This document shows, one piece after another, positions 12,287 through 57,032 of a stretch of 64,000 nucleotides of DNA; position 1 is the first letter of the stretch, and each line of letters starts with the position of its first letter. Both the position numbers and the translations under genes were made by a program. Source of the stretch: Anaerolineales bacterium (GTDB lineage Bacteria; Chloroflexota; Anaerolineae; Anaerolineales; E44-bin32). The stretch is taken from positions 9,240-73,239 of the forward strand of contig DAOUDW010000079.1 of NCBI GenBank assembly GCA_034430895.1, written 5' to 3'. The notes below the pieces were generated by a model. That model saw only the letters and a list, made by a program, of their open reading frames with translations, had not been told where the DNA came from and searched no databases.

Positions 12287-12383
12287 TTGGATCCTTTAGC
12301 TCATCGATATCCTAGCCCGGGGCGAATCTCGGGTTGTGTTTATGATTCGCAGGTCAGCTCAAACTTCATGAAAGGAGAATACG

Positions 12384-14255: not shown

Positions 14256-14642
14256 TGGACTTCCGAATAATGTCGTAGCCCAGCCGAAGCGGGATAGCTT
14301 GTTGTACAAACCATGCTTAACCTGGTGTATGATGTAGAACCAGGTTTGTAGGGTTTCCGTAAGGTCGGTAGCTGGTGGGTTTCTTGTACGATGGAGTGGT
14401 CTAACACGGATAATTTATATCTGTAAATGGTATTGCTATAAGCCGTAAGGTTTTTCTGCGCCAAGAACTCTTGGTAATGCGTATGTGATCGTATATGCCG
14501 TTGGTGGTGTCGTGAAGCGTCCTCTGAACATCGCAGCATTCATTGGAATGGCCCAACATTATAGCCCGGATCTTCATGCGTTCGAGAGTGTGTGAATGGA
14601 GTACACATGGCGAAGTTCATTAGATTCTGAAGGGTGGGTGAG

Positions 14643-16427: not shown

Positions 16428-16454
16428 CCTCGGTTGTAGATGGATGAATTAAAT

Positions 16455-16486
16455 AATAAGCGTCGAATTTGCAATCGACGCTTATT
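16455..16486. terminator. Bidirectional hairpin between convergent genes
   Basis: AATAAGCGTCGA-8 nt-TCGACGCTTATT, 12-bp stem. Confidence 0.7.
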
Positions 16487-16516
16487 TACGTTTATCTCCC
16501 AGGCTTGTCGTATCGA

Positions 16517-17263: not shown

Positions 17264-17269
17264 GCAGGG

Positions 17270-17278
17270 ATTATAGCA
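17270..17278 (-). promoter_or_regulatory. Extended -10 (TGCTATAAT) 6 nt before the DsbA ATG; probable leaderless promoter
   Basis: Minus strand reads TGCTATAAT-CCCTGC-ATG with no SD sequence. Confidence 0.6.
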
Positions 17279-17299
17279 CAATGACATGTTTGATCGTGC

Positions 17300-17328
17300 T
17301 TGACTAAAAAAAGAAATGCGAATATAGT
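17300..17328 (+). promoter_or_regulatory. Sigma70-type promoter of the methyltransferase-corrinoid operon
   Basis: TTGACT-17 bp-TATAGT. Confidence 0.75.
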
Positions 17329-17333
17329 CTAAA

Positions 17334-17351
17334 AGACTGACTGGTCAGTCT
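17334..17351. promoter_or_regulatory. TetR-type operator AGACTGAC-TG-GTCAGTCT
   Basis: Perfect 8-bp arms just after the -10; 15-bp core repeated at 20769-20783. Confidence 0.8.
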
Positions 17352-17377
17352 ATTATCCATTACCAAGGGGATGCACA

Positions 17378-27428: not shown

Positions 27429-27662
27429 CTCGGGTCGCCATCTGAGCGATTCAATATTGTGGAGCTGTCCGTCCAGGACGGCTCCATTTTTTTCTGGTGA
27501 AGGCTAATTAAAAACATCGCTTTCGAGTAGTTTATACGGTTACTTTCCGGTAACTTTCGGCGTGTAGGAATGCTTAAGTATCCATCCGAGATCGACCATA
27601 TTGTCTGGAAAGATATCGTCCTGTAATATCTAAGCTGAACGCTTATGCGGAGAGGTTGTCCC

Positions 27663-29804
27663 ATGAATCTACTTGTAAAGCGTTTTCGGGATCCTTTCGT
27701 AAGAGGAATTCTCATTGGTTTGGCTTCATTGATTTGCGTTACTTGCACAGCTCATAAGGAGGATATAAGCAGTATTCGCAAGGCCCCAACATTACCCCCA
27801 AGATGGACTGACACCCCGGCTCCATCGACACCAACAGCGACAGACAAGCCGACGCTCACCCCGTCAGCTACGCTCACAGCAACAGCTACAGAGCCTATTG
27901 CCCCTACGGTATCCGAGATTGATGGGATGGAGATGGTGTACGTGCCGGAGGGAAAATTCTGGATGGGTGACGATTATGACCGACATCAGATTCATCTCGA
28001 TGCATTCTGGATTGACCGCACCGAGGTCACCAATGCTATGTTCGCAAATTTCCTGAATGCGGAGGGGAACCAGATGAGTGGGGCTCGGATGAAATGGTTG
28101 AACACAGAAGGTGATGGTGCGCTCATTGAAAAGTCGGGAGGGGTATGGCGCCCGTTGTCGGGGTACGAGAATCATCCGGTAGTCAATGTGAACTGGTATG
28201 GTGCACAGGCTTACTGTGCATGGGCGGGACGGCGTTTGCCGACGGAGGCGGAGTGGGAGAAAGCGGCGCGTGGGAACGATAGCAGAGAGTATCCATGGGG
28301 GAATGAGTTCGAAAGCAGTCTGGCGAATTTCAATGACGATACCACCACATGCAGTGCAGCAGGCTGTGATGGTTTCGAACGGACATCACCCGTTGGAAGT
28401 TTTCCGGGTGGCGAAAGCCCTTATGGCGCATTGGATCTGATGGGGAATGTTAGCGAGTGGATTTGGGATTGGCATGGGTGCAATTACTATTTTGAGTCAC
28501 CTGCGGAGAACCCACCCGGACCCAATACTGGATACAGGCGGGTGATCCGTGGAGGCTCGTGGAATGACAATCCTCAATACATGAAGAATTCCATTAGCCT
28601 GGACCTCCTTCCGGATATGTCCGCCATTGACATCGGGTTTCGTTGCGGTTTCTCATCTTCCACGTCTATTCCTTCGGAGAGAATGTTCGAACTGACTTCT
28701 ATCCATATGGCCAGCGAAACGGAAGGGTGGGGAATCAATAAAACGATTGTTATGATCACCCGAGATGGCGGTCAAACATGGCTCGATGTAACGCCATCGG
28801 AAAGTCTAACTGGCGGAAAACCCATTGAAGTGTATGGCGATTTTATCGATGCGGATCATGCCTGGCTGCTCTTTAGCACAGAATTACGGAACCCATTACT
28901 CAATACGAGTTGTATGAAGTCCAATGCATCTGTTATCTATACAGTGAACGGCGGTCAAACCTGGAAAGCCAGCAGCCCACTTATGCATGAATTATCTCAG
29001 TTCCCCTGTGCGGCGACAGTCAGGATGGTCGATACACGAACAGGTTGGCTGCGGATTTTGGGCTGGTATACGGGTGCCGGAGGACATGTCCCCACCCAAT
29101 ATTTCCACACAACGGATGGGGGTGCCACTTGGAAGATGTTGGTGCCGTCCTGGTGTGGTTCCTCGGGGGATTCGTGTTACGCCCAATCGACGCCGGAATG
29201 GCTAGATCCCTCGGGCATAGACTTTGTGAAAGAACAAACCGGTTGGATACTCCGGGAGACATTGGATCCGTATGTGCCTTTCGCGCCCGTATATCATGTA
29301 ACCACTGACGGGGGACTGACATGGAGAAGCCTTTCTTTCCCGGCTCCCTTGGATGCACCGGATCTATTTTCTGAATTTGAGGAATGTGAACCATACCAGC
29401 TTAACTTACTCACAGAGGAGACCGTGCGTTTGAAGGTTACGTGTCGGAAGAAATTTAAACGGGGGCCAGATCCGATCGCGTATATTTATGCCAGTGATGA
29501 TGCTGGCTATACATGGAATGCATACCCGCTTCCACTTTCGACTGCAGATAACGACGAGTATTACCAACGGATGATATTCATTGACGCGGATTTCGGTCTG
29601 TTTCTTGGCCAAGAAATGTTCCAGACATACGATGGCGGAGCAACTTGGCAGCAGATAAATACCGTTGACTGGGAGGGTGTATTTAGTTTTGTGGATCGCT
29701 CGCGAGGTTGGGCGATTGCAATGGAGGGTGGATCGATTAGTCTCATGACTACGGCTAGTGGTGGCGCGGATTGGCAAATCCTGAATCCCGTGGTGGTCCC
29801 ATGA
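27663..29804 (+). CDS. Exported protein: FGE-sulfatase (SUMF1)-like domain plus BNR/YCF48-like propeller
   Basis: RLPTEAEWEKAARG, DLMGNVSEW, RGGSW, GFRC, followed by repeated T.DGG.TW boxes. Confidence 0.82.
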   Translation: MNLLVKRFRDPFVRGILIGLASLICVTCTAHKEDISSIRKAPTLPPRWTDTPAPSTPTATDKPTLTPSATLTATATEPIAPTVSEIDGMEMVYVPEGKFWMGDDYDRHQIHLDAFWIDRTEVTNAMFANFLNAEGNQMSGARMKWLNTEGDGALIEKSGGVWRPLSGYENHPVVNVNWYGAQAYCAWAGRRLPTEAEWEKAARGNDSREYPWGNEFESSLANFNDDTTTCSAAGCDGFERTSPVGSFPGGESPYGALDLMGNVSEWIWDWHGCNYYFESPAENPPGPNTGYRRVIRGGSWNDNPQYMKNSISLDLLPDMSAIDIGFRCGFSSSTSIPSERMFELTSIHMASETEGWGINKTIVMITRDGGQTWLDVTPSESLTGGKPIEVYGDFIDADHAWLLFSTELRNPLLNTSCMKSNASVIYTVNGGQTWKASSPLMHELSQFPCAATVRMVDTRTGWLRILGWYTGAGGHVPTQYFHTTDGGATWKMLVPSWCGSSGDSCYAQSTPEWLDPSGIDFVKEQTGWILRETLDPYVPFAPVYHVTTDGGLTWRSLSFPAPLDAPDLFSEFEECEPYQLNLLTEETVRLKVTCRKKFKRGPDPIAYIYASDDAGYTWNAYPLPLSTADNDEYYQRMIFIDADFGLFLGQEMFQTYDGGATWQQINTVDWEGVFSFVDRSRGWAIAMEGGSISLMTTASGGADWQILNPVVVP

Positions 29805-29929: not shown

Positions 29930-31762
29930 ATGTTCGCAAGAAAGAAATCGTTCCGAAAAACGAGTTTCAAACTTGGTTTCGTTATCCTGCTTGTCGCGTT
30001 CATCGGCGGTTGTGCGGGATTAACGGACATGCCGTTCAGCATCAACGTGGATGAGATTATGCGACGGCTCCATCAGGCGCCGTCCTCAAACTCGTGCCGG
30101 GTCACGGAGGTCCTGAGGGCACCTTTCTCATCCGGATTGAATGCGATTACGACGCAGGATGTCTATTCGGGGCCACTTTTGTTGACCGTGATGGGGACGG
30201 GACAGGCCTCGGCGACATCCTATACGGATGCGTTTTACGTATTTACTGACTTTGAGGGGACCTCGATATCCCCGCAACACCCGGATGATGATTGGATTCT
30301 GGCGATCAACAGTGAAGTGGCGGAGATGTATATTCCGGATGGGCAGATTCCCGCGTTTAACGCCGATCATCGCTATACATTTGAAATCAATGCCCCGGGC
30401 GGTGTATTGACCTTCGGGGTAAGGGATGAATACACGTCGGATAATTCTGGGGGTTACTTGATATCTATCTGTCAATACGCTGATGAACTTGCAGAGAGCG
30501 GTATTCCTGAAATCGCCGCCCAAACCGCGGCGTTCACCGATTTTCAAGCTACACCCACACCAAGCCCGATGCCGCAGGTTACTTCAACTCCACTAATCCG
30601 TCCAACGACGACGCCCGCTTTCAGGGCTGGGAATCCTGTGAAGTTGGAATCGATCCACATGCTCAGCGATACGCAGGGGTGGGGCACCAGCGGGGACTCG
30701 TTTTTAATCACGCGGGACAGCGCCCAAACCTGGCACGAGCTGCGGCTTCCCGCAGCCCCGGAGAAATATACCGAAGAATATGGTTCAAAGGTGTACTTTG
30801 CGGCAACCGACGCCGAGCATGCCTGGCTGCTCTATGCGCCAAAACCTTTTGCTTCGATTCATGGCTGCGTCGCCGCTGACGCGCCGGTTTGGTACACCAC
30901 GGATGGCGGCCAGACCTGGAATGCCAGCCAGCCGCTCATGCATGAATTGTCGAACAAGGATTGTGAGGCGACTTTTATCACCATGGACGCCCAACAGGGG
31001 TGGATGAGCCTCGATGGTTGGTATTTCGAAGCCGGCCCTCAGAAGGATATGCAATTATTCCGAACCTTGGATGGTGGGAAAACCTGGAAACCACTCAAAG
31101 TAACTTGGTGCTTGCACGAGTTAAAGGATTCGTGCTTTTCTAATCCACCCGGGTGGATTTCGGAGAGGGCGTTCCATGGTCAAACCGGATGGCTGCTGGG
31201 AAACTGGTTCGGCCACATTGTATCGAACGAAGGCGTACCACCACCCGTATTCTACGTCAGTACGGACGGAGGAGAAAACTGGTACCGTCGTGATCTGCCT
31301 CCACCGACGGACAACCCGCGCTTCTACGAGCAGTATTTCTATTGCCAACCTTACAATCTCAATTTATTGACGGAAAACGTTGTTCGCCTGAAGCTTTCTT
31401 GTTCTCAATATGAGCCCGATGCAAAGCCTGAAGCGGTGGATTATATCTATGCCAGTGAGGATCTCGGCGAAACATGGGAGACGTACGTGCTGCCAGTCTC
31501 ATCTGAAGAGATGGATACACAGTTGAAGTTCTTTGATCCGGATTATGGTTTGCTGTTGGGTCGAACAATGTGGCGCACGGAAGATGCTGGGGAAACCTGG
31601 CAGCAGATCAACAGTGTAACTTGGGATGGGCAGTTCGGTTTCGTCGACCGCGATCACGGCTGGGCGATCGCCAGAAGCGGAGTTGAGACTGCTCTTGTAT
31701 ACACGGTCGATGGGGGGGCGAGTTGGCAGATCATTCATCCGGAGATCTCAGCGGATGAATAG
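29930..31762 (+). CDS. Lipoprotein: unknown (possibly LecA-like) N-domain plus BNR/YCF48-like propeller paralogous to the upstream gene
   Basis: IGGC lipobox, Thr/Pro linker, T.DGG.TW repeats. Confidence 0.78.
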   Translation: MFARKKSFRKTSFKLGFVILLVAFIGGCAGLTDMPFSINVDEIMRRLHQAPSSNSCRVTEVLRAPFSSGLNAITTQDVYSGPLLLTVMGTGQASATSYTDAFYVFTDFEGTSISPQHPDDDWILAINSEVAEMYIPDGQIPAFNADHRYTFEINAPGGVLTFGVRDEYTSDNSGGYLISICQYADELAESGIPEIAAQTAAFTDFQATPTPSPMPQVTSTPLIRPTTTPAFRAGNPVKLESIHMLSDTQGWGTSGDSFLITRDSAQTWHELRLPAAPEKYTEEYGSKVYFAATDAEHAWLLYAPKPFASIHGCVAADAPVWYTTDGGQTWNASQPLMHELSNKDCEATFITMDAQQGWMSLDGWYFEAGPQKDMQLFRTLDGGKTWKPLKVTWCLHELKDSCFSNPPGWISERAFHGQTGWLLGNWFGHIVSNEGVPPPVFYVSTDGGENWYRRDLPPPTDNPRFYEQYFYCQPYNLNLLTENVVRLKLSCSQYEPDAKPEAVDYIYASEDLGETWETYVLPVSSEEMDTQLKFFDPDYGLLLGRTMWRTEDAGETWQQINSVTWDGQFGFVDRDHGWAIARSGVETALVYTVDGGASWQIIHPEISADE

Positions 31763-38223: not shown

Positions 38224-40044
38224 TTAATCCTCATCCGGACATGCGCAGTACGGTGACCTGTTAACGCTTTCGACCCAGGTCCCTCCTGCCTCGATGCACA
38301 ACTCCTCGTTGAGATCCGCGCTGCAGGTCAGCTCCGGCTCGGGCTCCGGCAATTCAGGCGGTATGATGACCGACAGGGATTCGGCATCGCCATGGAACTG
38401 TCCTACTGAATCAGAGATCCAGCAGTTGAATTCCCCGATCCACCACCAAGTGTTGTCCTCGTTGCGCCCATCGACGTTGAGCACGGTTCCGGCAGTGAAA
38501 GCCGTCACGTCTTGGTATCGCGTATCGGGACCAAGCCGGCAGAAGCCATTCGTGTCGAGGTGGAAGCTCGGGGGACCTTCCGTCGGAGTCGCAGTCGGCA
38601 GCAGGGGCTGCAGGGGCTGCAGGGTGACGACGGGCGAGATTTCAACCACAGGTGTCAGCACTTCCAGTTCGTACGCGCCCAGATCGCACTCCGCACCTTG
38701 CGGCCGGAAGACGCCGCGCTGATCGATAGGCAGGCTGTCATATGGCGCCGAGCCGTCGATGGCCGGGCTGCCGGTCAGCAGGGCGTGGGTCTGCGTTGGG
38801 CCGCCGTTATCGGCGAGCGGTCCCAGAAAGGGGTTTCCGGTTAGGCTGAAGCCGGTGCAGCTGCTGTCGGAGTCCAGGTTGTTCCCCGTGATATTGAATG
38901 CTGTTGAGGGAGCAGAAAAATCGCAATCGCCTCCGGTGTTCATAGCGATGATCAAGTTATTAAACGCTACGCCGAATCCGCTATTAATATCGACGGCGGG
39001 TCTGTCCCCGGATCCCGAATTGCCCGTGATCGTCGTGAAGCTGATCATCAAACGTCCGACATCATGGATGATTGCAGAGCCTTGGTTTTCTGGCCCTGGG
39101 GCGCTGGTGAGCGAGTTTCCGGATAATGTACAGTTGACCAGCCATAGATCCCCGATATTCTGGATTCCGCCGCCTGAGTTAGCCGTGTTGTTGGCAATCG
39201 TGCTGCCGCGGATGTCCAACGCTGCGTAGTTGATGAACGCGCCGCCGCGCGAGGCCTGGTTGTTGAAGAACGAACTATCGTCGACGTCCATGTGGCCGTT
39301 TTGTCTGTTGCCAATGGCGCCGCCGGTGAAAGCCACGTTTCCGGTGAAGGTGCTGCCCATAATCGTCGCCATCGTGCCTGTATCCTGATGGCTGTTGTTG
39401 ATGGCGCCGCCTCTGCCGGTGGAGGCGATATTGTCGCTGAACTGTGAATTGCTCACCGTAAGATCGCCGCCCTGATTGTAGACGGCGCCTCCACTCTGAT
39501 TGGCGACGTTGTCCGTGAAGGTGCTGCTCGTGATTGTCACCGTGCCGAGAAAATTGCGGATGGCGCCTCCAAGATCGGCCTGGTTGTTTAAGAATGTACT
39601 GCTGGCGACTGTCAATTCACCCTGATTCGAGATCGCGCCGCCGATGATGATTCCCGTATCGTCCGCCGGGCTTGCGGCGCCGTTCGCCAATGTGATGTCC
39701 GAGACGAGAAGTTCGCCCGTCTGAGCGACTTTGAACAGCCGAAACTGGGGCGTTCCTGCGGCGCTAGCGCGTTGGATCGAAGCGCCGTTGCCGATAATGG
39801 CGATCGGCGAAGTGATCACCGGCAAGCCGTTGTTGCCAAGTGTGTCGCTGTTGTCTACGGCTGTGAGCTCGTAGATACAGTCCGCGGCCAGCGCGATATT
39901 GTCCCCGGTTGTCGGTGTTGCGTTGGCGTCGTTGATGGCGTCGATCAATTCGGTCACATCGCAGCCGATGGTCTCGATCACCGGGAATTCGCAAGCGCAT
40001 AAGGCAAGCAGAATACAGATGGTAAATAATAATTTGGTATGCAT
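38224..40044 (-). CDS. Lipoprotein with polymorphic-membrane-protein GGAI beta-helix repeats, choice-of-anchor Q-like domain and SH3-like tail
   Basis: LCAC lipobox, repeated F..N.A..GGAI.N, LGPLADNGGPTQTHALL.GSPAID, DQRG..RPQG..CDLGAYE. Confidence 0.82.
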   Translation of the reverse strand: MHTKLLFTICILLALCACEFPVIETIGCDVTELIDAINDANATPTTGDNIALAADCIYELTAVDNSDTLGNNGLPVITSPIAIIGNGASIQRASAAGTPQFRLFKVAQTGELLVSDITLANGAASPADDTGIIIGGAISNQGELTVASSTFLNNQADLGGAIRNFLGTVTITSSTFTDNVANQSGGAVYNQGGDLTVSNSQFSDNIASTGRGGAINNSHQDTGTMATIMGSTFTGNVAFTGGAIGNRQNGHMDVDDSSFFNNQASRGGAFINYAALDIRGSTIANNTANSGGGIQNIGDLWLVNCTLSGNSLTSAPGPENQGSAIIHDVGRLMISFTTITGNSGSGDRPAVDINSGFGVAFNNLIIAMNTGGDCDFSAPSTAFNITGNNLDSDSSCTGFSLTGNPFLGPLADNGGPTQTHALLTGSPAIDGSAPYDSLPIDQRGVFRPQGAECDLGAYELEVLTPVVEISPVVTLQPLQPLLPTATPTEGPPSFHLDTNGFCRLGPDTRYQDVTAFTAGTVLNVDGRNEDNTWWWIGEFNCWISDSVGQFHGDAESLSVIIPPELPEPEPELTCSADLNEELCIEAGGTWVESVNRSPYCACPDED

Positions 40045-42628: not shown

Positions 42629-45600
42629 CTATTCCGGTTCGATCTTTACCTGAATGGCTCGCACGATGAGGCGATAGCGATATGAATCACTGGCTTCATC
42701 GTAGCCCTGGCAAGTGATCAACGTTATCCATGGATACTCCTCATGTTCGAAGACGTTCGTATCGGGCGTGACGTTTCGACAGGAGCGTACCTCATAAATA
42801 TATCGTTGGCCAAAGGCGTGGATGATCACCTGGTCGCCCGAGCGTAACTTGTGCAGGTTGACAAATGGACCAGGAGATCCGTCCGCCAGATAGACGTGGG
42901 CTGTGATGGCTGAATTACCCGACCAGGTGGGAAAGGCGGTGCCCTGAAGGTAACCGGCCTGATCCCACAACCAGGTTACGTCCCAGCCTGTGCCCGATCG
43001 GGGAATGCCGATGATAGTTGTATTCACACCCAGGCTTGGGATTTCCAGCCAGATACCACCGAGAGGCGTATAGACAACTTCTGGCGGTTGTGCAGGCAAT
43101 ACGGTTACTTGCCCGGGTGCAAAGCCAGTTTCGGGTATTTCCTCCACCGGACTCGAGGTCCCGATCGTTACCGAATCGCTGATTCCATAACTGTTGACAC
43201 CGGCAGGCGCAGTGGGATCATACCAACGTTCCGTTGAGTTTGGATTGTATGGTGATCTCTGCACCGGGACTGGCGGCGGTCCAGGAGTGGTAGGATCGAT
43301 CTCCAGACTCGTCCATTCCGCGCTTGAAGAATTGACAACCGGAGGTGGTCCGAGATAGGTCGCCTGGAAGGTTACGCTTGCGGTCTCAGTGAGACGGATC
43401 ACGTCCCAAGTAATCGTGAGTGTATTGGTGGCAGCATCGTAGTAGGGCGGTGGCTCTGGATTGACCGTAGCTGTGCCCCCGATTACCAGGGTAGCCGGAA
43501 GGAAGGTCAAGCCGGTGGGGATCTGATCTCGAACAACCACGTCGAAGGCATCCGCGGTACTGGCGGCATCGTGGGTGAGATCGATCGTGAACGTGACGGA
43601 TTCGCCAATCGAAACCGAAGTCGGTGCGGCGTCTTTATCTATTACCAACTCTGGCTCGATAATCTGTACGGGCGGCGCGTTGGTTGATCTCGTTCCACCT
43701 AGCCAGGTCCAGGTTACGTCGTTGGACAGGCTGTCGCCGTCCTGGTTGGCCAGGATATCCAAAACAATCAGCGTGTATCGAACTCTCACAACCTGGGCTG
43801 ATGCCGATGTACTTGTGATGGTACCGAAATCGAAGGTAATCAGCTCGCCGGAATTTTCGATCAACGGATTGCTCCCGGGAGTTGTTCCGTCCAGCGTACC
43901 ACAGGCAACGACACCTGTTCCGAAGGTGCTGCTGCTGACGTTGGCGGGCATGGTGATGGAGATACAATCCGTGAAGGCGAGACCGGCTTGTGGCGTATCC
44001 ACCAGCTGGACAGCGTCCAAACTCGCTCCGGCGGGGATGGTCATGCCGATTTCGTAGGTGATGATCTCTCCGATGGTTACGTTGGGGTCGGTCGTATGGC
44101 TGGCATCGGTAGAGACAATCGTCTTCGACAGATTTGTGACAAACCCGAAGTCAACCGTAGGGTTGTACGTCGTTCCGGTGACATTCGTGACCACGTTGTT
44201 CGATGCAGCGCCGGAGCTGCCGGGCGTCAGGGTGACGAGATTGCTGGAGATGACACCACTGCCCGTCCCAACGCCGTTGTCGTTATTGTCTATATTGCTA
44301 TTCGGGTTGGCGGTGTCAGCAGGATTGGCGGTATCTACGGTACTGGGAGAACCGGTGGGTAAGACTCTGACAACATAACTCCCTGCGGGGAGCCCGCTGA
44401 AGCGGTATTCCCCACTCCCGTTGGAGAGCATTCCACCCGGGGCATCATCCGCGCTTCCTAAGATTCCGTCCGGGCCGACGTTGAGTTCAGTTGTGCCGTT
44501 GCCGGTAAATAATTGTACAGTCGCGCCTGGCAGCGGTGAGTCGCTGCCGTCGAAAGCACCGCTTTCGTCGAGGTCCTGGAATATCAGGTTGCCCAATTCC
44601 TGGCGGTAGAAACCAAAATCTACCGTGCGATTGCTTTGCTCATCCACTGCTTCGCCTGCTTGGGGATTGGTCGTTGGGTCGATCTCGCCGGTCGGCTCGA
44701 CGCCACTTGGTCCGAGCGTGACGGTCTGCGCCGAAACGTAGTTGACCGTATTCCCTGTGAATTGGGTCACCCCGTTATCGTCGCTGTCTGTGTTGTTATC
44801 CGGATCGGGACCGATGCTGTCCGTGGTTGTTCCACCCGCGGCGATGCTCGTACCGCTGCTCAGGTAACCAGCCAACGGATCGCTCGGGTTCGTATCGCCC
44901 GTCCCAACATCGCGGAAGTTGTCAGCGGGGATGACCACGATATAGTCGTCTGCGCCCAAATCATCGAAGCGGTAGTATCCATTACCAATGGTGTTGAGAA
45001 AACCGATGGATGTGTCACCCGCGTCAAAGACGCCCGGTGTGGTTCCGTCATCCAGATATAGCTCTACACGTACACCACTAATTCCGATCTCACCTACATC
45101 CAGGATGCCGTTGTTGTCCGTGTCGAACCAGACCCGGTTGCCCAGGCTGTATGGGGTTAGGGTCAGCGTGTCTGTCGCCGGCTGGATGTTGGTCACATTC
45201 TGTTCGTTCGTCAGGCTGCCTGGCGGGATTGTATTCGTATAGATGCCAGGATTCGCACCCGTAACAGGAATAGTAAGTTGGCAGTTGTCGAATCCTATCG
45301 GCAGGGAACCACCGGAAAGCTGGATCGTGGTATCGCTTGGGGATGCCGAAAGCGTGCCCCCGCAGCCATTGGTCGGTGCAGGCGCCGCACCACCCGCGAC
45401 CTGCAATCCGGCGGGCAACGTGTCAACCAGGCCTACGTCGGTTATTGCCACAGTAGCAGTGGTGCGAATGGTGATTGTCAGAATGGAATAGCTGCTCAAG
45501 CCTGCGGAAATCGGGTTGGGTGCAAAACTCTTGCTGATGCTGGCGCCTGCCAAGTTGGTCAGTGTGGCGGCAGTGGGGGTCTGATTCTGGGCCCCGTTGA

Positions 45601-48600
45601 AGGAGGTGACGGCCAGGGCGGGAATTGTGTTGGTACGGTTCCCGTTGACCACCATAGTCACATCCAGCGTGAGAGTACATTCATCGCCCGGCGCCAGGTA
45701 GCCACCGCTGAACGAAAACGTACTCGAACCGGCTGTGCCTGTCAAAGTTGCCTCCGGGCCACAATCTGAGGCATCGAAATTGGGAGGATCGACGAGGATC
45801 ATCTCGCCGGGAGGATAAGCGTCCGGATCGGGAGGATCGAGCCACATGTTATCGGTAAACGAAATGTCGATTAATTCCGCTCCTGTATTTGGATTTCGCA
45901 GAATAATACTCATCTGTGAGTTTGCACCACCATAGACCAGCTGCGGATTGAAGCCTTTCACGACCTCGAGATCCAGGTTGCGAACGGTCAGCGGAGCGCT
46001 TGCAGGCGCATCGGAATTCATTGTTGAGGGTGATTCCTCGATGCGTGCCACCACATTCGTGGGGGGGATGGTGTTGGTGTGTGTAGCTGGAACTGCCCCG
46101 TTGGTGGATTTGCCCTGAACGTCCACATTAATGGTGCAAATGCCGTTGATACCACCCACTTGAGCTGGGATCGTGCCGTTCGTCATGGATATTGTCTGAG
46201 AACCGGGAGTGGCAGTGATCACAGCACTGCCGCAAGTTGTGCTGGTATTGGGGATTGGTGCAACCACCACACCATTTGTGGTGGTCCCCGGGAGCGTATC
46301 CGAGAGTGTCGCATCCACCAGGTTGGCCGGATTCGAATTCTCCAAGGTGATCGTCAGGGTCGAAAGCCCATCTGGATTGACGATATCGGGGTAGAACGCC
46401 TTGCTGATGGTCAAGGTGCTGGGGGTGTGTACCGTGAGCTCAGCGCTGACATCGCCCGGAGGGTTTCTGTTCTCGTTATTGGTAACATTACCGGGTAGGA
46501 TGGTGTTGTTGTAGACGATGCCCGGTCCGGTGCCGGTGTCGCTGGTTACATACACCTCCACCGTGCAGGTCTCCCCTGCCAGAATAGAACCGCCGCTGCC
46601 CGCAATCGTGGTTGCCCCATTCGCCGGGGGCCAGGCGCCGCCCAGCGGGCCGCATTCGAGGGAAGCTGATGGAGGTGTGGAATTGCTGACATATACGTCT
46701 CCATCTCCCCCGGTGGGCAGGGTATCCGAAAATGTGAAATTGGTAAGATTGGTATCCGCAGGAGCGGTGAAAGTCAACTGTAGAGTCGAATCATCGCCTA
46801 TGTCGATTGTGCTTGGTGTGAAAGTCTTTGTAGTAGCCACGCCGGTGGTAAGGGTGTATACACTCACAGGGGCGGACGCCGCTGTGGTGTTGCTGGGGCC
46901 TTCTGCCGTCGTCAGGCCGCCGACGGGGATGGTATTGGTATAGGAAGCCGAGAGCGCACCCGGCGCTGTTGTCACTGTGGCGGTAATGACACAGGTGCTG
47001 TTGGCTGGGATGGTGCCGCCCGTCAGGGTTACAGTTCGGGTAGTGGGCGCCCCAGAAAGAGCAACCGATCCCCCGGGGCAGGTGGTGCTGGGGGTGCTGG
47101 GGGTGCCCGTGAACACCAGGTTGTTGTTGGGAGCGATCGGCAGGGTATCACTCACTGCCACGTTTGTGTAATCTGAGTCGGTCGAGTTCGTCAGGGTGAT
47201 GGTCAGGAGGTTGGTATCCCCCGCCTGAAAAGCGGAATACTGAAAAGCTTTGCTGACGCTGACAGCATTGACGAGCAGGCTCCGGCTGCCGGTATTGCTG
47301 TTCGTTGGGCCCTCGGTGGTCGTCACAGATCCGGGTCCCAGTATGTTCGTGTATGTGCCGCTTGAGGTGCTTTGAGTCGGCCGGACGTACACGTCGATCG
47401 TACATGATGACGGCCCAGCCGGAAGCGTACCGCCTGTGAGTCGAATTGACGTGTCGCCCGACTCGAGGGAGCCACCTCCCCCGTCGGTGATCGAGCCGCC
47501 GCTGCATGTCGTGGATGGGGCTGGTGATGGTCCTGGGGGAAGTTCGACAGCATGGGGCGCAACTTCGATTCCCGCCGGAAGGTTGTCGGTAAGCGTGATT
47601 CCGGTAAGCGGGCCGCCCGTGGCGGGGTTACTGATCGTGATACTCAATAGACTGGCATCCGGATAAGACACCGTGAGGGGAGAGAAGCTTTTCGCTACGC
47701 TGATGGTAGATACATTTACCGTGTCGCTGGCTGGAGATGCGTTCGTTCCCCCCTGGGTTGTAGTGAGAGTACCGTGCAGTATGGTGTTGGTGTAGTCGCT
47801 GGCTGCCGGGTTGCCCGGATCGGTGGTCACCGTGGCGCTGATGGTGCAGGTGCTGGGAGCGGCGATCGATCCACCCGGGATGGTGCCGCCTGTCAATTCC
47901 ACCGTCCGTGGAGGAGGTCCACCCGTCAAGTTCACTGCACCGCCGCAGGTAGTCCCTGCGCTTCCGGGAACGAATTCCAGGTTGTTGTTGGGAGCGATCG
48001 GCAGTGTATCCGAGAGGTTGGCGCCGGTAAATGCATAGGGTGATGGATTGCTGATCGTAATTGTCAGGGTGGTCGTTTGTCCCGCGGCAAACGTGTCTGG
48101 GGAGAAGAGTTTGGTAATCGAGAGCGATTCGACATCCACGCTGTCGGAAGTCGAGGAGTGATTGGTCGCTCCCTGGTCGGTATTCAATGCGCCGGCCAGG
48201 ATTGTATTCGTATAGGTGCCTTCCGCCGTACTAATCAACGCTCTTGCAAAGGCTGTGATGGTACAGGTTGAGTTGGCGAGGAGCGTGCCGCCTGTCAAGC
48301 GGAGGGTATCATTGGTGTTCGTCGTGGTAACGATCGACACTGTCGCCCCGCCATTGCAGGTCGTCAATTCGGTGCCGATGACATATTCCAATCCGGCCGG
48401 CAAGACGTCATCCAGCGCGGCGCCGGTGTAGTCGAAAGACGCATGATTCTGGATGGTGATGGTCACCGGGCTGGTATCACCGGCTGCGATCGGAGAAGTC
48501 CCAAATGCTTTATTCAGCGTGAAGGCCTGGACATTGAGAGGAGCACTTGCTGAATCGGTATTGGTCACCCCTTCGCGAGTCTGAATGGAGCCGGGTCCGC

Positions 48601-49516
48601 CAGGGCCAGCGGGTATGGTATTGATATAGGCGCCTTGGACTGCGGAAGTGACATCCACGGTTATGTCGCAGTTGGAACTTGGGGCAATCGTGCCGTCATT
48701 CAATCTGATGGAAGTGTCGCCGGGATCCAACGAACCCCCACCGCCGTCGCTGAGGGTTCCTGCACCGCAGCCGCTGAGGCTGGCGTTGACCGGGTCAGCC
48801 AGTTGAATATCGCCATTTCCACTTGTGGGCAGCGTATCGGTGAGCGTAGTTTCTGTCAGCGGATTGTTGGGGTCGCTGTTCTGAATAGTGATCGTCAGTG
48901 TGCTGGTCCCTCCGGCAAAGATCGTGTTGGGGGCAAAACTCTTGAAGAGGGAAGGCTCATCTACCTCGATCACGTTCAGCGTAGCGCTCGCTGGCGTGGT
49001 GTTCGAAATAAAAACCGGTGTGGGTGGGATGCCTGTATCCTCCGGGTCAATGGTGTATGAGGACAATGCACCGGTAGGAATGGTATTGATCAGGTTTCCA
49101 GGAGTGGTGGAGGTGACGGTAACTTCCACCGAGCATTGGCCGGGGAGGCCACCCGATTCTCCGGGGACCGTGCCGCCGGTTAACATGACCGAAGTGTCCC
49201 CGGGGCCAAGTGCTCCTCCTCCCCCATCGGTGACTGTACCGCCGCAGGTGTTCACGATAGTTGAGCTGGCGATCGAAAGTCCCGGCTGGATGCTGAGCAG
49301 ATCATCCGTCCAGCTGGCGTCTGTGAGCGGGTTTTGATTGAGGTTGTATACGGTAACCCGCAATGTGGAAGTTCCTCCCGAGACGATGGCAATCGGATCG
49401 AAACTCTTGTTAATTTCGGCCGGGACGGTTACTGCATAAGCTGTTTTTGGTGGAGGGAAGATAAAGGAGAGGATTAACACACTGGCGCATACGATTGCAC
49501 GAACGGCATTCCTCAT
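42629..49516 (-). CDS. Giant repeat surface protein (10 isopeptide-type Ig repeats, 2 SdrD-B-like domains, DUF11-like domains) with internal IPETG and C-terminal sortase domain
   Basis: Signal peptide from ATG 49516; K.F.P..I..G..S.LTITI.N repeats; SLGNRVWFD and ELGNLIFQD; IPETG at 43138-43124; sortase TAH, TLITC and RLIVRA. Confidence 0.9.
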   Translation of the reverse strand: MRNAVRAIVCASVLILSFIFPPPKTAYAVTVPAEINKSFDPIAIVSGGTSTLRVTVYNLNQNPLTDASWTDDLLSIQPGLSIASSTIVNTCGGTVTDGGGGALGPGDTSVMLTGGTVPGESGGLPGQCSVEVTVTSTTPGNLINTIPTGALSSYTIDPEDTGIPPTPVFISNTTPASATLNVIEVDEPSLFKSFAPNTIFAGGTSTLTITIQNSDPNNPLTETTLTDTLPTSGNGDIQLADPVNASLSGCGAGTLSDGGGGSLDPGDTSIRLNDGTIAPSSNCDITVDVTSAVQGAYINTIPAGPGGPGSIQTREGVTNTDSASAPLNVQAFTLNKAFGTSPIAAGDTSPVTITIQNHASFDYTGAALDDVLPAGLEYVIGTELTTCNGGATVSIVTTTNTNDTLRLTGGTLLANSTCTITAFARALISTAEGTYTNTILAGALNTDQGATNHSSTSDSVDVESLSITKLFSPDTFAAGQTTTLTITISNPSPYAFTGANLSDTLPIAPNNNLEFVPGSAGTTCGGAVNLTGGPPPRTVELTGGTIPGGSIAAPSTCTISATVTTDPGNPAASDYTNTILHGTLTTTQGGTNASPASDTVNVSTISVAKSFSPLTVSYPDASLLSITISNPATGGPLTGITLTDNLPAGIEVAPHAVELPPGPSPAPSTTCSGGSITDGGGGSLESGDTSIRLTGGTLPAGPSSCTIDVYVRPTQSTSSGTYTNILGPGSVTTTEGPTNSNTGSRSLLVNAVSVSKAFQYSAFQAGDTNLLTITLTNSTDSDYTNVAVSDTLPIAPNNNLVFTGTPSTPSTTCPGGSVALSGAPTTRTVTLTGGTIPANSTCVITATVTTAPGALSASYTNTIPVGGLTTAEGPSNTTAASAPVSVYTLTTGVATTKTFTPSTIDIGDDSTLQLTFTAPADTNLTNFTFSDTLPTGGDGDVYVSNSTPPSASLECGPLGGAWPPANGATTIAGSGGSILAGETCTVEVYVTSDTGTGPGIVYNNTILPGNVTNNENRNPPGDVSAELTVHTPSTLTISKAFYPDIVNPDGLSTLTITLENSNPANLVDATLSDTLPGTTTNGVVVAPIPNTSTTCGSAVITATPGSQTISMTNGTIPAQVGGINGICTINVDVQGKSTNGAVPATHTNTIPPTNVVARIEESPSTMNSDAPASAPLTVRNLDLEVVKGFNPQLVYGGANSQMSIILRNPNTGAELIDISFTDNMWLDPPDPDAYPPGEMILVDPPNFDASDCGPEATLTGTAGSSTFSFSGGYLAPGDECTLTLDVTMVVNGNRTNTIPALAVTSFNGAQNQTPTAATLTNLAGASISKSFAPNPISAGLSSYSILTITIRTTATVAITDVGLVDTLPAGLQVAGGAAPAPTNGCGGTLSASPSDTTIQLSGGSLPIGFDNCQLTIPVTGANPGIYTNTIPPGSLTNEQNVTNIQPATDTLTLTPYSLGNRVWFDTDNNGILDVGEIGISGVRVELYLDDGTTPGVFDAGDTSIGFLNTIGNGYYRFDDLGADDYIVVIPADNFRDVGTGDTNPSDPLAGYLSSGTSIAAGGTTTDSIGPDPDNNTDSDDNGVTQFTGNTVNYVSAQTVTLGPSGVEPTGEIDPTTNPQAGEAVDEQSNRTVDFGFYRQELGNLIFQDLDESGAFDGSDSPLPGATVQLFTGNGTTELNVGPDGILGSADDAPGGMLSNGSGEYRFSGLPAGSYVVRVLPTGSPSTVDTANPADTANPNSNIDNNDNGVGTGSGVISSNLVTLTPGSSGAASNNVVTNVTGTTYNPTVDFGFVTNLSKTIVSTDASHTTDPNVTIGEIITYEIGMTIPAGASLDAVQLVDTPQAGLAFTDCISITMPANVSSSTFGTGVVACGTLDGTTPGSNPLIENSGELITFDFGTITSTSASAQVVRVRYTLIVLDILANQDGDSLSNDVTWTWLGGTRSTNAPPVQIIEPELVIDKDAAPTSVSIGESVTFTIDLTHDAASTADAFDVVVRDQIPTGLTFLPATLVIGGTATVNPEPPPYYDAATNTLTITWDVIRLTETASVTFQATYLGPPPVVNSSSAEWTSLEIDPTTPGPPPVPVQRSPYNPNSTERWYDPTAPAGVNSYGISDSVTIGTSSPVEEIPETGFAPGQVTVLPAQPPEVVYTPLGGIWLEIPSLGVNTTIIGIPRSGTGWDVTWLWDQAGYLQGTAFPTWSGNSAITAHVYLADGSPGPFVNLHKLRSGDQVIIHAFGQRYIYEVRSCRNVTPDTNVFEHEEYPWITLITCQGYDEASDSYRYRLIVRAIQVKIEPE

Positions 49517-49969
49517 CGTTGTTATCCACGATTTAATATGAAGCGAAACCGGATACCGTCGGTTTCGCTGCTTGCTCCCCAAAATCCTGACTTGCAAGGC
49601 AAGTTACGATCAACTTCAGGTTTTGGAACAATATGTAGTGACGTGGGAATATCGGTATTATTGTACACGAAGCTTTCCATCTCGACCATACCCAATCTGC
49701 CATAATCTTGCTTGTCCGAAAATCTGAATACGAATGGGCATCTCTCTGCTGCGATACCCGCGATGGATTGGGAGAAGCAGGTGCGTGAAATCAGGAAGCG
49801 TTTTTCAATTCCGAAGGCTTATCGAACTCAATAAACTTTCTCGATTGGTGTCCTGCGGGGGAAGCCGTTACTCGTCAGGGCTGTGTGGTGCAGTGGAGTA
49901 CAATTAAGAATATCTGAGGCGATCCCCACTCACAGGGCGCGGTGATCGCAGAAGAGGAGACGGCCCGAG

Positions 49970-55712: not shown

Positions 55713-55874
55713 TACCGAATATTTTGGATGGTGAAAGTCATTCGGCAAACTTGCCAGGAGAAGGACGCTGCGGATATGGATGGGGCAAATTGAGTGCTTC
55801 AGCTTTTGGAGCTGCGCATATGTTGCGGATATAATATAGATCATCTTGGGAAAAGATGGGATGAAATAGAACAG

Positions 55875-57032
55875 ATGCTGAAACGTTTTCTGGGGTTGAG
55901 TGTCGGATTGCTGTTGGCTTTCCTGGCCTTCTCTATGGCGATGGCAGAAGGGATGCCATCTATAGCCATCGATAATGGATCTGCAGTCTGTACCAACCGG
56001 CTGCAATTACGCCATCCACAACGATGTGCCAACGGTACCGCGCGGAGTTCCTTAACCGCCCTGGCCAACGAAGGTCTCTATCCGGAGCATCCTATTCCGG
56101 TTGGTGAAGTGGACTTGTCGTTGGGTCAGGTGGATTTTACCTATTTGCGTTCCGGCCGTAAGGATGGAACGCCGCTCTACAACAGTCTCGATTCGGTGAT
56201 TAAAGGTCGTGATGCTTACCGCACGATCGAGTCAGGTTTCGTCTATTTTTCCTGGATTGATCGCATCGAGCAAAATGGCAAGGTGGCCTACATGATTGCC
56301 CCGGGTGTCTATATCCGTGGCGATGGGGTGAGTCGTGTATCGATCCCTAACTTCCGCGGTGTGACGTTGACGCATACGCCTGTCCAACCTTTTGGTTGGG
56401 TGATGACAAACGTGGAAACTCGTGTCGGCCCAGGTTCTGATCAAGCCAATACGGGACGGTGGAAGTACCGCTACAACATGGTTTGGATTTTCGATGTCGA
56501 GAATGTGGGAGGATTGGATTGGTACAAGATCGGACCGCAGGATTGGATTGAGCAGCGTTTGCTGGCTATCGTTTTCCCCGATACCGACCAACCGGAGGGT
56601 GTCCCGGACGATCACTGGATTTCGATCAATTTGTATGAACAGACCATGATGGTTTACGAATCGGGTGAGATGATCTATGCCACGTTGGTCTCAACAGGTT
56701 TACAAGGATGGTGGACACAACCCGGGGATTTCCAGGTATACAAGAAATTGGAACGCGATTTCATGGGAGGTGCCTTTGAAGCCGACCGTTCCGATTATTA
56801 CTACCTGGAGGACGTGCCCTGGATCCTGTATTTCGACGAATCGCGCGCGCTGCATGGTGCATACTGGCACAACGGGTTTGGCTATCCGCGTTCGCACGGC
56901 TGTGTTAATCTCTCTTTGCCGGATTCCCACTGGATATACAATTGGGCACAAGTGGGAACGTGGGTGCACATATTCGATCCATCCGGCGAGACACCGACCG
57001 ATCCGAATGCGTATGGGTCTGGCGGCGTCTAG
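55875..57032 (+). CDS. L,D-transpeptidase (YkuD) family exported protein
   Basis: Signal peptide; VSTG, ALHGAYWH...PRSHGCVNL. Confidence 0.88.
   Translation: MLKRFLGLSVGLLLAFLAFSMAMAEGMPSIAIDNGSAVCTNRLQLRHPQRCANGTARSSLTALANEGLYPEHPIPVGEVDLSLGQVDFTYLRSGRKDGTPLYNSLDSVIKGRDAYRTIESGFVYFSWIDRIEQNGKVAYMIAPGVYIRGDGVSRVSIPNFRGVTLTHTPVQPFGWVMTNVETRVGPGSDQANTGRWKYRYNMVWIFDVENVGGLDWYKIGPQDWIEQRLLAIVFPDTDQPEGVPDDHWISINLYEQTMMVYESGEMIYATLVSTGLQGWWTQPGDFQVYKKLERDFMGGAFEADRSDYYYLEDVPWILYFDESRALHGAYWHNGFGYPRSHGCVNLSLPDSHWIYNWAQVGTWVHIFDPSGETPTDPNAYGSGGV

Follow-up and report, generated by a model that had tools for sequence, protein, structure and literature searches.

A C-terminal module that carries both a sorting motif and a sortase domain in giant secreted proteins of Anaerolineae: a candidate self-sorting device

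Background

The closest described counterpart of the protein analyzed here is canonical sortase A of Gram-positive bacteria together with its LPXTG signal. The two have in common the fold, the catalytic triad (His-Cys-Arg, including TLxTC), a pentapeptide whose X varies and, apparently, the way in which the first residue of the pentapeptide (P4) is read, i.e. by an equivalent position of the beta6/beta7 loop (SaSrtA V168/L169). They differ in that the module encoded in our window (64,000 nt of Anaerolineales contig DAOUDW010000079.1, the whole stretch that was analyzed) unites enzyme and substrate in a single polypeptide without a membrane anchor; its motif lies 165 aa from the C-terminus and is followed by the sortase domain, whereas the canonical motif lies within the last ~35-50 residues and is followed by a helix and a basic tail, and the turnover of the module would be single-use. 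Among solved structures, class C sortases are the nearest relatives in sequence (24rr_A, E = 7e-16), and in fold they belong to the best matches. Like them, the module is predicted to place a segment located ~22-25 aa upstream of beta1 over the active site, but it has LPxTGF where the class C lid has DP[WFY]. Unlike the class C systems, it has neither a C-terminal TM helix nor a pilin gene cluster, a conserved neighbor is absent, and the passenger is nearly free of Lys outside the isopeptide positions.

A self-cleaving sortase fusion tag was reportedly engineered by Mao in 2004. Engineered SrtA-LPXTG-target tags, in which a single chain cleaves itself (BISOP, PMC2901362; PMC4658790), provide a proof of principle and make the chemistry of self-cleavage plausible. 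These constructs are artificial, with the motif placed C-terminally to the enzyme and a designed flexible linker, whereas in the natural module the motif is N-terminal and the connector is conserved and predicted to be ordered; moreover, they serve hydrolytic or Gly-triggered release and not anchoring. A similar logic is known from the Hedgehog Hint domain, which excises itself from the C-terminus via a (thio)ester and transfers its passenger to an acceptor in a single turnover; there, its own Cys undergoes an N-S acyl shift and cholesterol serves as the acceptor. Since its fold and chemistry are unrelated to those of the module, which is a sortase, this is an analogy only.

In the full-text literature we found engineered fusions only, and no descriptive or biochemical paper on a natural sortase-substrate fusion, in agreement with the original prediction, whose author knew of no biochemical characterization. 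The papers of Cavalier-Smith mention sortases in general terms only. Published surveys of sortase-anchored adhesins restrict the motif search to the final 50 residues (PMC9210967, PMC12617251) and therefore miss the whole module family.

Results and discussion

The gene and its passenger

The mechanically delimited ORF (42629-49597, minus strand) opens with a TTG codon at 49597 and comprises 2,322 codons; its translation includes SSPVEEIPETGFAPGQVTVLPAQPPEVVYTPLGGIWLEIPSLGV and, further on, ITAHVY, and closes with WITLITCQGYDEASDSYRYRLIVRAIQVKIEPE. The true start is likely the ATG at 49516, which yields the signal peptide MRNAVRAIVCASVLILSFIFPPPKTAYA, predicted to be cleaved before V. The gene and the parts of its passenger are as follows:

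42629..49516 (-): whole gene; probable start ATG 49516, stop codon 42631-42629, precursor of ~2,295 aa
49433..49516 (-): Sec-type signal peptide, from the translation; predicted AxA cleavage before VTVP
45158..49420 (-): ten DUF7933 repeats, limits approximate; Pfam 516 bits, 10 stretches
44318..45148 (-): SdrD_B / CnaB-like prealbumin-fold domains, limits approximate; Pfam SdrD_B 68 bits, 2 stretches
43298..44260 (-): DUF11/CLIPPER isopeptide-type domains, limits approximate; Pfam DUF11 123.6 bits, TIGR01451 112 bits, TIGR04226 67 bits
42553..42584 (-): intrinsic terminator GGACTGCCC-ATGAA-GGGCAGTCC, then CTTTGTATT; narrower limits 42584-42562; 45 nt past the stop

The passenger of ~2,100 aa thus contains ten DUF7933, two SdrD_B and up to four DUF11/CLIPPER matches in Pfam, with additional sub-threshold matches to CarboxypepD_reg and SpaA in the SdrD_B region. 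DUF7933 is regarded as a family of isopeptide domains (PMC12617251), and each of the repeats has two Cys and an initial Lys in a K-x-F motif (at aa 64, 219, 363, 496, 636, 783, 924, 1066, 1214 and 1356), the Lys, a candidate member of the Lys-Asp-Asn isopeptide triad, occupying an equivalent place in 10/10 repeats; we predict that they form stalk domains of the type stabilized by intramolecular isopeptide and disulfide bonds. The mature passenger has 13 Lys per 2,102 aa, ten of which are the K-x-F residues that open the repeats and are presumed to be consumed in intramolecular isopeptide bonds. As all domains detected are of the stalk type, the label "adhesin" is a guess. The DUF11/CLIPPER region is closed by a conserved segment (EWTSL..D, continuing to SPYNPNSTERWYDP) that extends to about 43214 and is common to many homologs. 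Beyond the terminator the transcription unit encodes nothing more.

The C-terminal module

One C-terminal module carries both the sorting motif and a complete sortase domain, with the following elements:

43124..43138 (-): sorting motif IPETG (family consensus LPxTG); P, T and G invariant in 75/75 aligned sequences
43049..43123 (-): connector FAPGQVTVLPAQPPEVVYTPLGGIW, conserved, predicted ordered (logo, AF2 pLDDT 94-96, class C lid alignment)
42632..43048 (-): catalytic domain of the sortase (aa 2184-2322, numbered from the TTG start), an eight-stranded beta-barrel (PF04203, AF2, Foldseek)
42896..42898 (-): catalytic His (ITAHVY), invariant in 75/75; aligns with SaSrtA H120
42749..42754 (-): Val-Phe of the beta6/beta7 loop, corresponding to SaSrtA V168-L169 (substrate P4 pocket); covary with the first residue of the motif
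42710..42712 (-): catalytic Cys of TLITC, invariant in 75/75; aligns with SaSrtA C184
42671..42673 (-): catalytic Arg (YRYR, followed by LIV), invariant in 75/75; aligns with SaSrtA R197

The coordinates originally given for IPETG, His and Cys proved exact on re-translation. The assignment to the sortases (MEROPS C60 superfamily) is supported by Pfam PF04203 (75.2 bits against a cutoff of 26.6, aa 2184-2314), by TIGR01076 on the isolated module (41.6 against 39.35), and by the alignment of 75 sequences, in which H135, C197 and R210 are the invariant catalytic positions. The AF2 model has a pLDDT of 88.9 overall and of 93-98 over the sortase domain; Foldseek returned 128 PDB matches at E<=0.001, and 50/50 of the matches listed are sortases with a probability of 1.0, the best being lidded sortases. 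None of the NCBIfam sortase class models (A-F and GN, cutoffs ~140-166 bits) is reached by the window protein, the best class scores being C 44.7, F 44.0, E 38.4, D 26.6 and GN 21.7 bits (the class C model, NF033745, thus gives 45 bits against a cutoff of 160), and the LPXTG-anchor models of NCBIfam do not match it. From the tripartite CWSS only the pentapeptide is present, while the helix and the positive tail are absent and a 165-aa segment comprising the connector and the sortase domain takes their place. The claim that no hydrophobic helix or basic tail follows IPETG was borne out. The ORF stops 26 aa past the Cys; the enzyme, which comes after the secreted passenger, lacks a membrane anchor.

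Cleavage is predicted at the bond that joins Thr (43129-43127) to Gly (43126-43124). Among representatives of clusters of <=50% identity the motif logo is L83 P100 x T97 G99. P, T and G match the catalytic His, Cys and Arg in invariance, while X is hypervariable (A26, E13, D13, S10 and others); with this pattern the motif behaves like a real sorting signal. By a rough estimate ~0.2 occurrences of [LIVMA]PxTG are expected by chance in a protein of this length, and the position-specific invariance across homologs excludes a chance occurrence. Conservation of the motif among homologs, the lack of which was one of the two grounds for refutation named in the original prediction, was found in 75/75 ORFs from genome loci and in 137/140 distant representatives (taken from the clusters of <=50% identity).

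The survey of motif-to-sortase spacing that had been suggested gave a practically fixed distance: 141-146 aa separate the motif from the catalytic Cys in 75/75 genome ORFs and in 135/137 representatives, and the family pattern upstream of the Cys is [L]PxTGF-APGxVTxLPxQP. The "Pro-rich linker of ~30 aa" described earlier does exist; it is, however, no floppy spacer but a connector of 25 aa (F60-W84) that is conserved in length and sequence and predicted to be ordered. Its family consensus is F-A-P-G-x-V-T-x-L-P-x-Q-P-x4-Y, with a modal spacing of 24 residues from the Phe of the motif to LEIP, and in the logo its conservation equals that of the domain (F97 A91 P93 T92 P81 Q81 Y79). The AF2 pLDDT is 87-96 for the connector versus 54-73 for the passenger tail that precedes it, and in a second family member 80-91 versus 47-51 for the C-terminal tail of that protein. 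When aligned by profile with 24rr_A, the class C sortase of Ebp, the connector falls at the position of the lid, the lid DPF being 22 aa ahead of LTIP in 24rr_A and TGF 24 aa ahead of LEIP here. We judged the placement of the motif at the active site from the pLDDT values, the lid alignment and the covariation described below. The fixed spacing and the conserved, predicted ordered connector are what one would expect if the motif docks in cis; a free substrate would give no reason to expect them.

Distribution of the family and genomic neighborhood

The module family comprises 1,604 clusters at 50% identity (E<=1e-30). A scan of genomes representing GTDB species, with a 10-sequence alignment as the query, gave 396 stretches that match the module, confirming the earlier statement that such fusions occur in Anaerolineae; 79 genome loci yielded 75 module-bearing ORFs. 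The module is invariably located at the extreme C-terminus, while the passengers range from roughly 400 to 6,000 aa and vary widely in their domains (DUF11, DUF7933, DUF7507, FG-GAP, Calx-beta); most complete ORFs possess signal peptides. One member, of 674 aa (L058), comes from the isolate Ornatilinea apprima P3M-1. At some loci (L006, L071, L020, L083) module-bearing genes form tandem pairs. Two apparent standalone "sortases" of ~160-180 aa (P0058, P0083) are in fact the tail ends of giant genes frameshifted in long-read MAGs. An assembly artefact or a chance fusion as the source of the architecture was ruled out by its identical occurrence in hundreds of independent assemblies.

Once the module gene and the shadow ORFs on its opposite strand had been set aside, the comparison of the 79 loci revealed no conserved neighbor gene and nothing that might serve as an acceptor or helper; the commonest neighbor families look by eye like syntenic housekeeping genes (e.g. 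aminotransferase-like and ROK-kinase-like). The locus flanks, 1.3 Mb in total, contain neither a standalone sortase nor a classical substrate with LPXTG, TM helix and basic tail. The extended motif PxTGF-APG occurs there 82 times, each time in the same ORF as a sortase domain.

Matching of motif and enzyme

A mean-field DCA of 296 modules places I55 (P4) with F184 in 7th and I55 with V183 in 33rd position among all pairs, although phylogenetic inheritance may inflate such covariation. Leu at P4 is accompanied by Leu184 in 165/232 modules, Ile by Phe in 17/20 and Ala by Phe in 15/15. The association of P4 with position 184 persists among clusters of 65% identity (p=4e-6), the only informative level, as coarser clusterings (16 or 2 clusters) leave the test without power. 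The SaSrtA residues V168 and L169, to which V183 and F184 correspond in the alignment, bind LPXTG and are changed in engineered APXTG-specific sortases; in the laboratory-evolved variants F40 and F1-21 (APXTG/FPXTG-specific) the change of P4 specificity maps to the same two residues (PMC9126251). Where P4 is Ala or Ile, the natural modules have Ile/Val-Phe at the equivalent positions; they differ from the evolved variants in that the variation is natural and occurs within a fused enzyme-substrate pair. As P4 covaries with a residue of the LPXTG-reading loop (the SaSrtA L169 equivalent), every enzyme appears to be tuned to its own motif. On the sequence evidence, the covariation reflects a match of motif and enzyme within one protein species, which fits action in cis and action in trans between identical molecules equally well.

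Proposed mechanism and alternatives

We favor, with somewhat better than even confidence, the interpretation that the last ~170 residues constitute a self-contained, single-use sorting module, with which each molecule would cut and attach itself. That cleavage takes place, that it is intramolecular, and which acceptor is used are the parts that we infer from sequence and models. According to this scheme, Sec would export the precursor by means of its N-terminal signal peptide, and the C-terminal sortase domain would be the last to emerge and fold. The connector would then wrap back in the manner of a class C lid, setting the molecule's own (L/I)PxTG in the substrate groove with the P4 residue packed against the beta6/beta7 loop. 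Attack of the catalytic Cys on the Thr-Gly bond would link the ~2,100-aa stalk to the Cys as a thioester; the sortase fragment, now 165 aa long and beginning with GFAPG, would remain as a mere carrier. An envelope amine would resolve the thioester. As the acceptor we consider lipid II or a stem peptide of the peptidoglycan most likely, at the membrane face from which the domain has newly emerged. The stalk would end up attached through its C-terminal Thr and the spent fragment would be freed. The idea of self-processing in cis, put forward in the original prediction, is supported to the extent that the computational tests that could have spoken against it all favored it. Against self-sorting, it should be noted that an anchorless sortase has no obvious means of remaining near lipid II, and that a tethered Gly leaving group would favor re-ligation.

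The alternative to be taken most seriously, though we regard it as unlikely, is a polymerase acting in trans, in which the sortase of one molecule would cut the motif of its neighbor and couple it to an amine of a further subunit (at a Lys or the N-terminus), building covalent fibers similar to class C pili. The relationship to the class C pilin sortases as the closest solved relatives by sequence, the pilin-like isopeptide domains of the passenger (TIGR04226) and the tandem genes at some loci are in line with this scenario, and so is the covariation. Such a polymerase would, however, have to find its acceptors among 13 Lys in 2,102 aa, ten of them presumed to be used in isopeptide bonds (PMC12617251); the near absence of free Lys also disfavors the earlier suggestion of "another subunit" as the acceptor. 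Moreover, a pilin motif was not seen in the passenger, passengers are unrelated across the family and thus offer no conserved acceptor site outside the module, and a substrate in trans needs neither fixed spacing nor an ordered, conserved connector.

Self-cleavage might also end in hydrolysis. The sortase would then be an intramolecular chaperone or a C-terminal pro-domain that is removed, and the stalk would be released or matured without ligation. Sortases are known to hydrolyze the acyl-enzyme when no nucleophile is available. A loop-swapped SrtA chimera hydrolyzes only (PMC9126251), and the module lacks a membrane anchor that would keep it near lipid II. We nevertheless consider this outcome quite improbable, as a protease built on a transpeptidase fold that forms thioesters and has an invariant Arg would be costly, the full sortase triad is kept across the family, and a secreted stalk of 2,100 aa, otherwise unanchored, would escape to the medium.

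The position of the motif at the class C lid, together with the lidded sortases among the best Foldseek matches, could alternatively mean that LPxTG is an uncleaved, autoinhibitory pseudo-substrate and that the sortase, carried at the stalk's end, works on other proteins. Known lids, however, have DP[WFY] in place of a perfect sorting motif, a true LPxTG kept in the groove should undergo cleavage, separate substrates with the extended motif are absent from the 1.3 Mb of flanks, and the covariation of P4 with the loop points to productive recognition, all of which makes this explanation highly improbable. Least likely, by a narrow margin, is a covalent harpoon that would be held on the producer by its N-terminus and whose distal C-terminal thioester would capture amines of another cell, of the shared sheath or of a foreign surface to achieve covalent adhesion: giant DUF11 proteins do form grappling-hook filaments with an N-terminal hydrophobic anchor in another member of Chloroflexota (PMC13319060), and the enzyme is devoid of a membrane anchor, but the signal peptide of the window protein has a standard AxA cleavage site and no N-terminal anchor was found in it.

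Conclusions

If the favored interpretation of a self-sorting module is true, this would be the first natural sortase joined with its substrate in one polypeptide, altering the textbook picture of a membrane-anchored housekeeping enzyme that acts in trans. A more far-reaching version, which we consider distinctly unlikely, is an "auto-sortase", i.e. a single-turnover, membrane-independent self-ligating tag in which an ancestral class C-like lid became the substrate, and whose extracellular thioester store would attach giant fibrils to some acceptor that is not lipid II, e.g. the mature wall, a foreign surface, or the filament's shared sheath or outer layer. In that case class C lids could be degenerate former substrates; the module also offers a concrete evolutionary link between sortase lids and sortase substrates. 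A self-ligating tag of ~170 aa, possibly independent of calcium and membranes and available in matched LPxTG, IPxTG and APxTG pairs, would also suit protein engineering. Anaerolineae are abundant filamentous bacteria of sediments and wastewater sludge with a poorly understood envelope, and the module decorates their largest surface proteins; if the "auto-sortase" is real, their covalent surface display would be carried out by a per-molecule enzyme instead of a housekeeping sortase.

Architecture of the gene and its product

Translation of the minus strand reveals an ORF of 2,322 uninterrupted codons (49597 to 42629) with a probable start codon at ATG 49516, where a typical Sec signal peptide opens (MRNAVRAIVCASVLILSFIFPPPKTAYA, followed by VTVP). 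Pfam matches in the passenger comprise ten DUF7933 repeats (516 bits), two SdrD_B domains and up to four DUF11/CLIPPER domains. The positions originally predicted for IPETG, the His and the TLITC Cys proved exact when read off the sequence ruler and, as had also been claimed, the translation has neither a hydrophobic helix nor a basic tail past IPETG; 26 residues lead from the Cys to the C-terminal end.

Features of the window gene and its product (nucleotide positions from the sequence ruler)
aa 64, 219, 363, 496, 636, 783, 924, 1066, 1214, 1356: K-x-F Lys residues
aa 2184-2314: Sortase domain (Pfam, 75.2 bits; gathering cutoff 26.6)
43138-43124, minus strand: IPETG
42898-42896, minus strand: catalytic His
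42712-42710, minus strand: Cys of TLITC
42673-42671, minus strand: catalytic Arg
42631-42629, minus strand: stop codon
42584-42553, 3' of the gene: GC-rich 9-bp hairpin with T-tract

The mature passenger (43127-49432, minus strand) comprises 2,102 residues with only 13 Lys, ten of which are K-x-F Lys, one where each DUF7933 repeat begins, and each repeat contains exactly two Cys. The defining feature of the DUF7933 family is an intramolecular Lys-Asp-Asn isopeptide bond (PMC12617251), and the observed pattern fits one disulfide and one isopeptide bond per domain. About 25 residues ahead of the motif (about 43214-43260, minus strand) lies a segment, SPYNxxSTERxYDP, that is conserved in the DUF11-type subfamily and absent from the DUF7507-type subfamily; its AlphaFold2 confidence is low (pLDDT 64-73).

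Inspection of the sequence 3' of the gene found no additional coding sequence in the transcription unit, and the 64-kb window contains no sortase signature or IPETG-like motif beyond this gene. The nearby genes are unrelated (TrmO, DUF6958, ICMT-like, nitroreductase, DUF362, WD40, ThrRS, YkuD), and the remainder of the window is ordinary chromosome (glycosyltransferases, aldehyde dehydrogenase, a GGDEF-EAL regulator, FGE-sulfatase/BNR proteins, ThrRS). The window comes from a MAG of Anaerolineae type of an uncultured bacterium (GCA_964606275.1), and its sequence is found in JGI metagenome assemblies too. A 606-aa ORF 2.6 kb downstream (38224-40044, minus strand) gives a weak match to Chlamydia-PMP repeats (23 bits) and may encode a further surface protein. 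Two neighboring paralogs, 27645-29804 and 29930-31762 (both plus strand), encode BNR/Sortilin-type beta-propeller proteins, the former with an N-terminally fused FGE-sulfatase (formylglycine-generating enzyme-like) domain.

Conservation and distribution of the module

A word-indexed protein search with the C-terminal 205 aa of the window protein retrieved 284 relatives, chiefly annotated as sortases and chiefly from Anaerolineales metagenomes. Among the best 120 of these, 107 match the strict pattern xPxTG[FYWL]-spacer-LEIPxLGV, with a 24-residue spacer in the great majority; the 13 misses mostly start within the module or possess the motif in a form outside the strict regular expression. A 75-member alignment has 19 invariant columns, including the motif residues P56, T58 and G59 as well as the triad H135, C197 and R210 (module-alignment numbering). 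A scan of genomes representing 185,579 GTDB species revealed 396 stretches that encode relatives, the best 79 of which come nearly all from Anaerolineae or other Chloroflexota, including the cultured Ornatilinea apprima P3M-1. In the fetched loci, each of the 75 module ORFs caught by a Cys-context pattern has xPxTG[FY] 141-146 residues N-terminal to the catalytic Cys, i.e. at a fixed spacing, and a stop 24-37 residues past it; modules missed by this pattern and recovered by profile search have the motif as well. Module ORFs in the genome loci range from 395 aa to >3,500 aa, and most complete ones start with a signal peptide.

A profile search run exhaustively over 1.84 billion representatives yielded, at E<=1e-30, 1,604 clusters with the module; the best 150 all have it at the extreme C-terminus, in proteins of up to 6,026 aa. 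The motif is at the fixed distance in 137 of 140 new sequences, and the remaining three deviate only trivially. The family logo reads L83 P100 x T97 G99 F97 A91 P93 [GN] x [VI] T92 x L75 P81 x Q81 P75 x4 Y79, with A, E, D, S, G or R at the X position of the motif. Because the motif is constant across the alignment, the genome loci and the cluster representatives, a lack of conservation among homologs, which would have spoken against the original prediction, is ruled out.

One database relative, P0187 (648 aa), is the sole member seen in which the motif Thr is replaced (LPDVGF), with the His/Cys/Arg triad intact; this could reflect a sequencing error or a natural variant that cannot be cleaved. 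Apparent "standalone sortases" of 160-180 aa (P0058, P0083) were rejected, since they proved to be the terminal pieces of giant genes that frameshifts had broken up in long-read assemblies. In long-read MAGs such genes are called as 3-7 successive same-strand ORFs (e.g. 193-10546 in locus L083 and 677-10489 in L084), probably due to indel frameshifts, which gives rise to the spurious entries. Modules with 55-58% identity to the first sequence of the query alignment were also found on contigs binned as Phycisphaerae (L033) and Acidithiobacillus ferrivorans (L053), for which mis-binning seems a likelier cause than horizontal transfer.

The connector and the position of the motif

The original prediction described the region between the motif and the enzyme as a Pro-rich linker of about 30 aa; its conserved length and sequence, predicted order and lid position show that it is not a loose one. 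Among the best relatives and in the family logo, the connector is of near-constant length and as conserved as the catalytic domain. The AlphaFold2 model calculated from the 75-sequence alignment (mean pLDDT 88.9) has values of 54-73 for the passenger tail, 87 for the motif block, and 96 and 94 for the following two blocks; the only regular secondary structure in the connector is a single helical turn. In P0114, a divergent member with the motif APGTGF, the motif/connector region scores 83, 91 and 80, and the C-terminal tail 47-51.

By profile, triad and predicted fold, the enzyme is a genuine sortase. The top Foldseek matches in the PDB are lidded sortases (C. diphtheriae SrtA, Actinomyces oris SrtC) and class E sortases, and the top sequence matches are class C sortases (24rr_A, 7e-16). 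In class C sortases the lid is the element that occupies the substrate groove. In the alignment with 24rr_A, the lid DPF precedes LTIP (beta1) by 22 residues and the TGF of the module precedes LEIP by 24; this agreement places the motif, as judged from alignment and model, at the topological position of the class C lid.

Matching of motif and enzyme

A set of 321 extracted modules was filtered at 90% identity, and mean-field direct-coupling analysis was carried out on the 296 that were left (effective number 255). Among pairs at least 5 residues apart, I55 (P4, the first motif residue) and F184 form the 7th strongest coupling, and I55 and V183 rank 33. Of the 232 modules with Leu at P4, 165 have Leu and 32 have Phe at position 184; Phe accompanies Ile in 17/20 and Ala in 15/15, with Ile at position 183 in 13 of the latter. 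The association of P4 with 184 persists over 111 clusters at 65% identity built on the domain sequence without the tested positions (Fisher p = 4e-6); coarser clustering is powerless. HMM-guided alignment with S. aureus SrtA, using a reference sequence checked via H120, C184 and R197, equates V183 and F184 with V168 and L169. In that enzyme Val166, Val168 and Leu169 of the beta6/beta7 loop, the primary specificity determinant, bind LPXTG, and laboratory-evolved variants accepting APXTG carry V168M/L169H or V168F/L169H (PMC9126251). The same P4-to-loop relationship in the natural family indicates that every sortase domain recognizes the motif of the protein it belongs to. Some weaker couplings are suggestive only: A61, two residues past the scissile Gly, is coupled to A134, which adjoins the catalytic His (rank 70), and Tyr77, a conserved residue of the connector, to the beta6/beta7 loop (rank 63).

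Self-sufficiency of the module

In the 1.3 Mb made up of the window and the fetched loci, all sortase-like ORFs are of the fused kind, and no ORF has a C-terminal end made up of LPXTG, a hydrophobic stretch and a basic tail. There are 82 copies of the extended motif PxTGF-APG, each N-terminal to a sortase domain in the same ORF, and one more copy reaches past the end of its locus. Clustering of all flanking ORFs in the fetched loci found no gene family consistently tied to the module. Passenger types vary (DUF11/CLIPPER, DUF7933, DUF7507/CLIPPER_2, FG-GAP, Calx-beta), and the conserved unit is the module alone. Several genomes possess more than one module gene, at times in tandem (Anaerolineae loci L006, L071, L020 and L083). 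In L083 the giant genes 193-10546 and 11375-17519 adjoin and share the same LPxTG-sortase module; in the genome NC_groundwater_1871, two contigs together hold three or more copies.

Proposed mechanism and alternatives

From the observed anatomy, conservation, predicted order and specificity match, and from the finding of no anchor and, within the flanks covered, no partners, we infer cleavage, its intramolecular nature and the acceptor as follows. The precursor would leave the cell through Sec, its sortase domain being the last part to fold, on the outer side of the membrane, whereupon the connector would place the protein's own LPxTG motif into the groove. The Cys would attack the Thr-Gly bond, forming a thioester with the 2,102-aa stalk, and the enzyme part (165 aa, N-terminus GFAPG) would stay as a carrier until an envelope amine, most probably of a peptidoglycan stem peptide or lipid II, resolved the thioester and set the spent enzyme free. 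We consider this model as a whole a little more probable than its failure. Its chemistry is feasible, since engineered single-chain sortase-LPXTG fusions self-cleave (PMC2901362, PMC4658790). Peptidoglycan is probably present in the window organism, because a YkuD L,D-transpeptidase gene (55794-57032, plus strand) is located 13 kb away; this gene probably points to 3-3 cross-linking, which bears on the amine acceptors that the wall offers.

Polymerization of module proteins in trans into fibers agrees with the class C kinship of the sortase domain, but the few passenger Lys, mostly at the DUF7933 isopeptide position (PMC12617251), and the unrelated passengers across the family, hence no conserved acceptor site, make it unlikely. 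Somewhat less likely still, the sortase domain could be a pro-domain that removes itself by hydrolysis. An uncleaved pseudo-substrate lid is improbable, given that nothing is missing from the motif as a substrate and that there are no other substrates nearby. A distal "covalent harpoon", suggested solely by analogy to Litorilinea with its DUF11 grappling hooks (PMC13319060), appears the least probable.

The module would work in the manner of a sortase/LPXTG pair, yet by sequence criteria it is outside every described sortase class and the tripartite sorting-signal family: unlike canonical sortases, the enzyme lacks a membrane anchor, a cell-wall sorting signal has three parts of which the motif supplies just the first, and no class-specific NCBIfam sortase model reaches its cutoff (best 45 bits vs cutoffs of 140-166). 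Full-text searches found engineered fusions only, with no curated model or paper describing a natural sortase-motif fusion. Two recent large surveys, of fibrillar adhesins and isopeptide proteins, confined their search for sortase motifs to the last 50 residues (PMC9210967, PMC12617251) and would therefore miss this entire family, scoring it as anchorless. Judged by its distribution, the module behaves as a portable C-terminal sorting domain that supplies its own enzyme.
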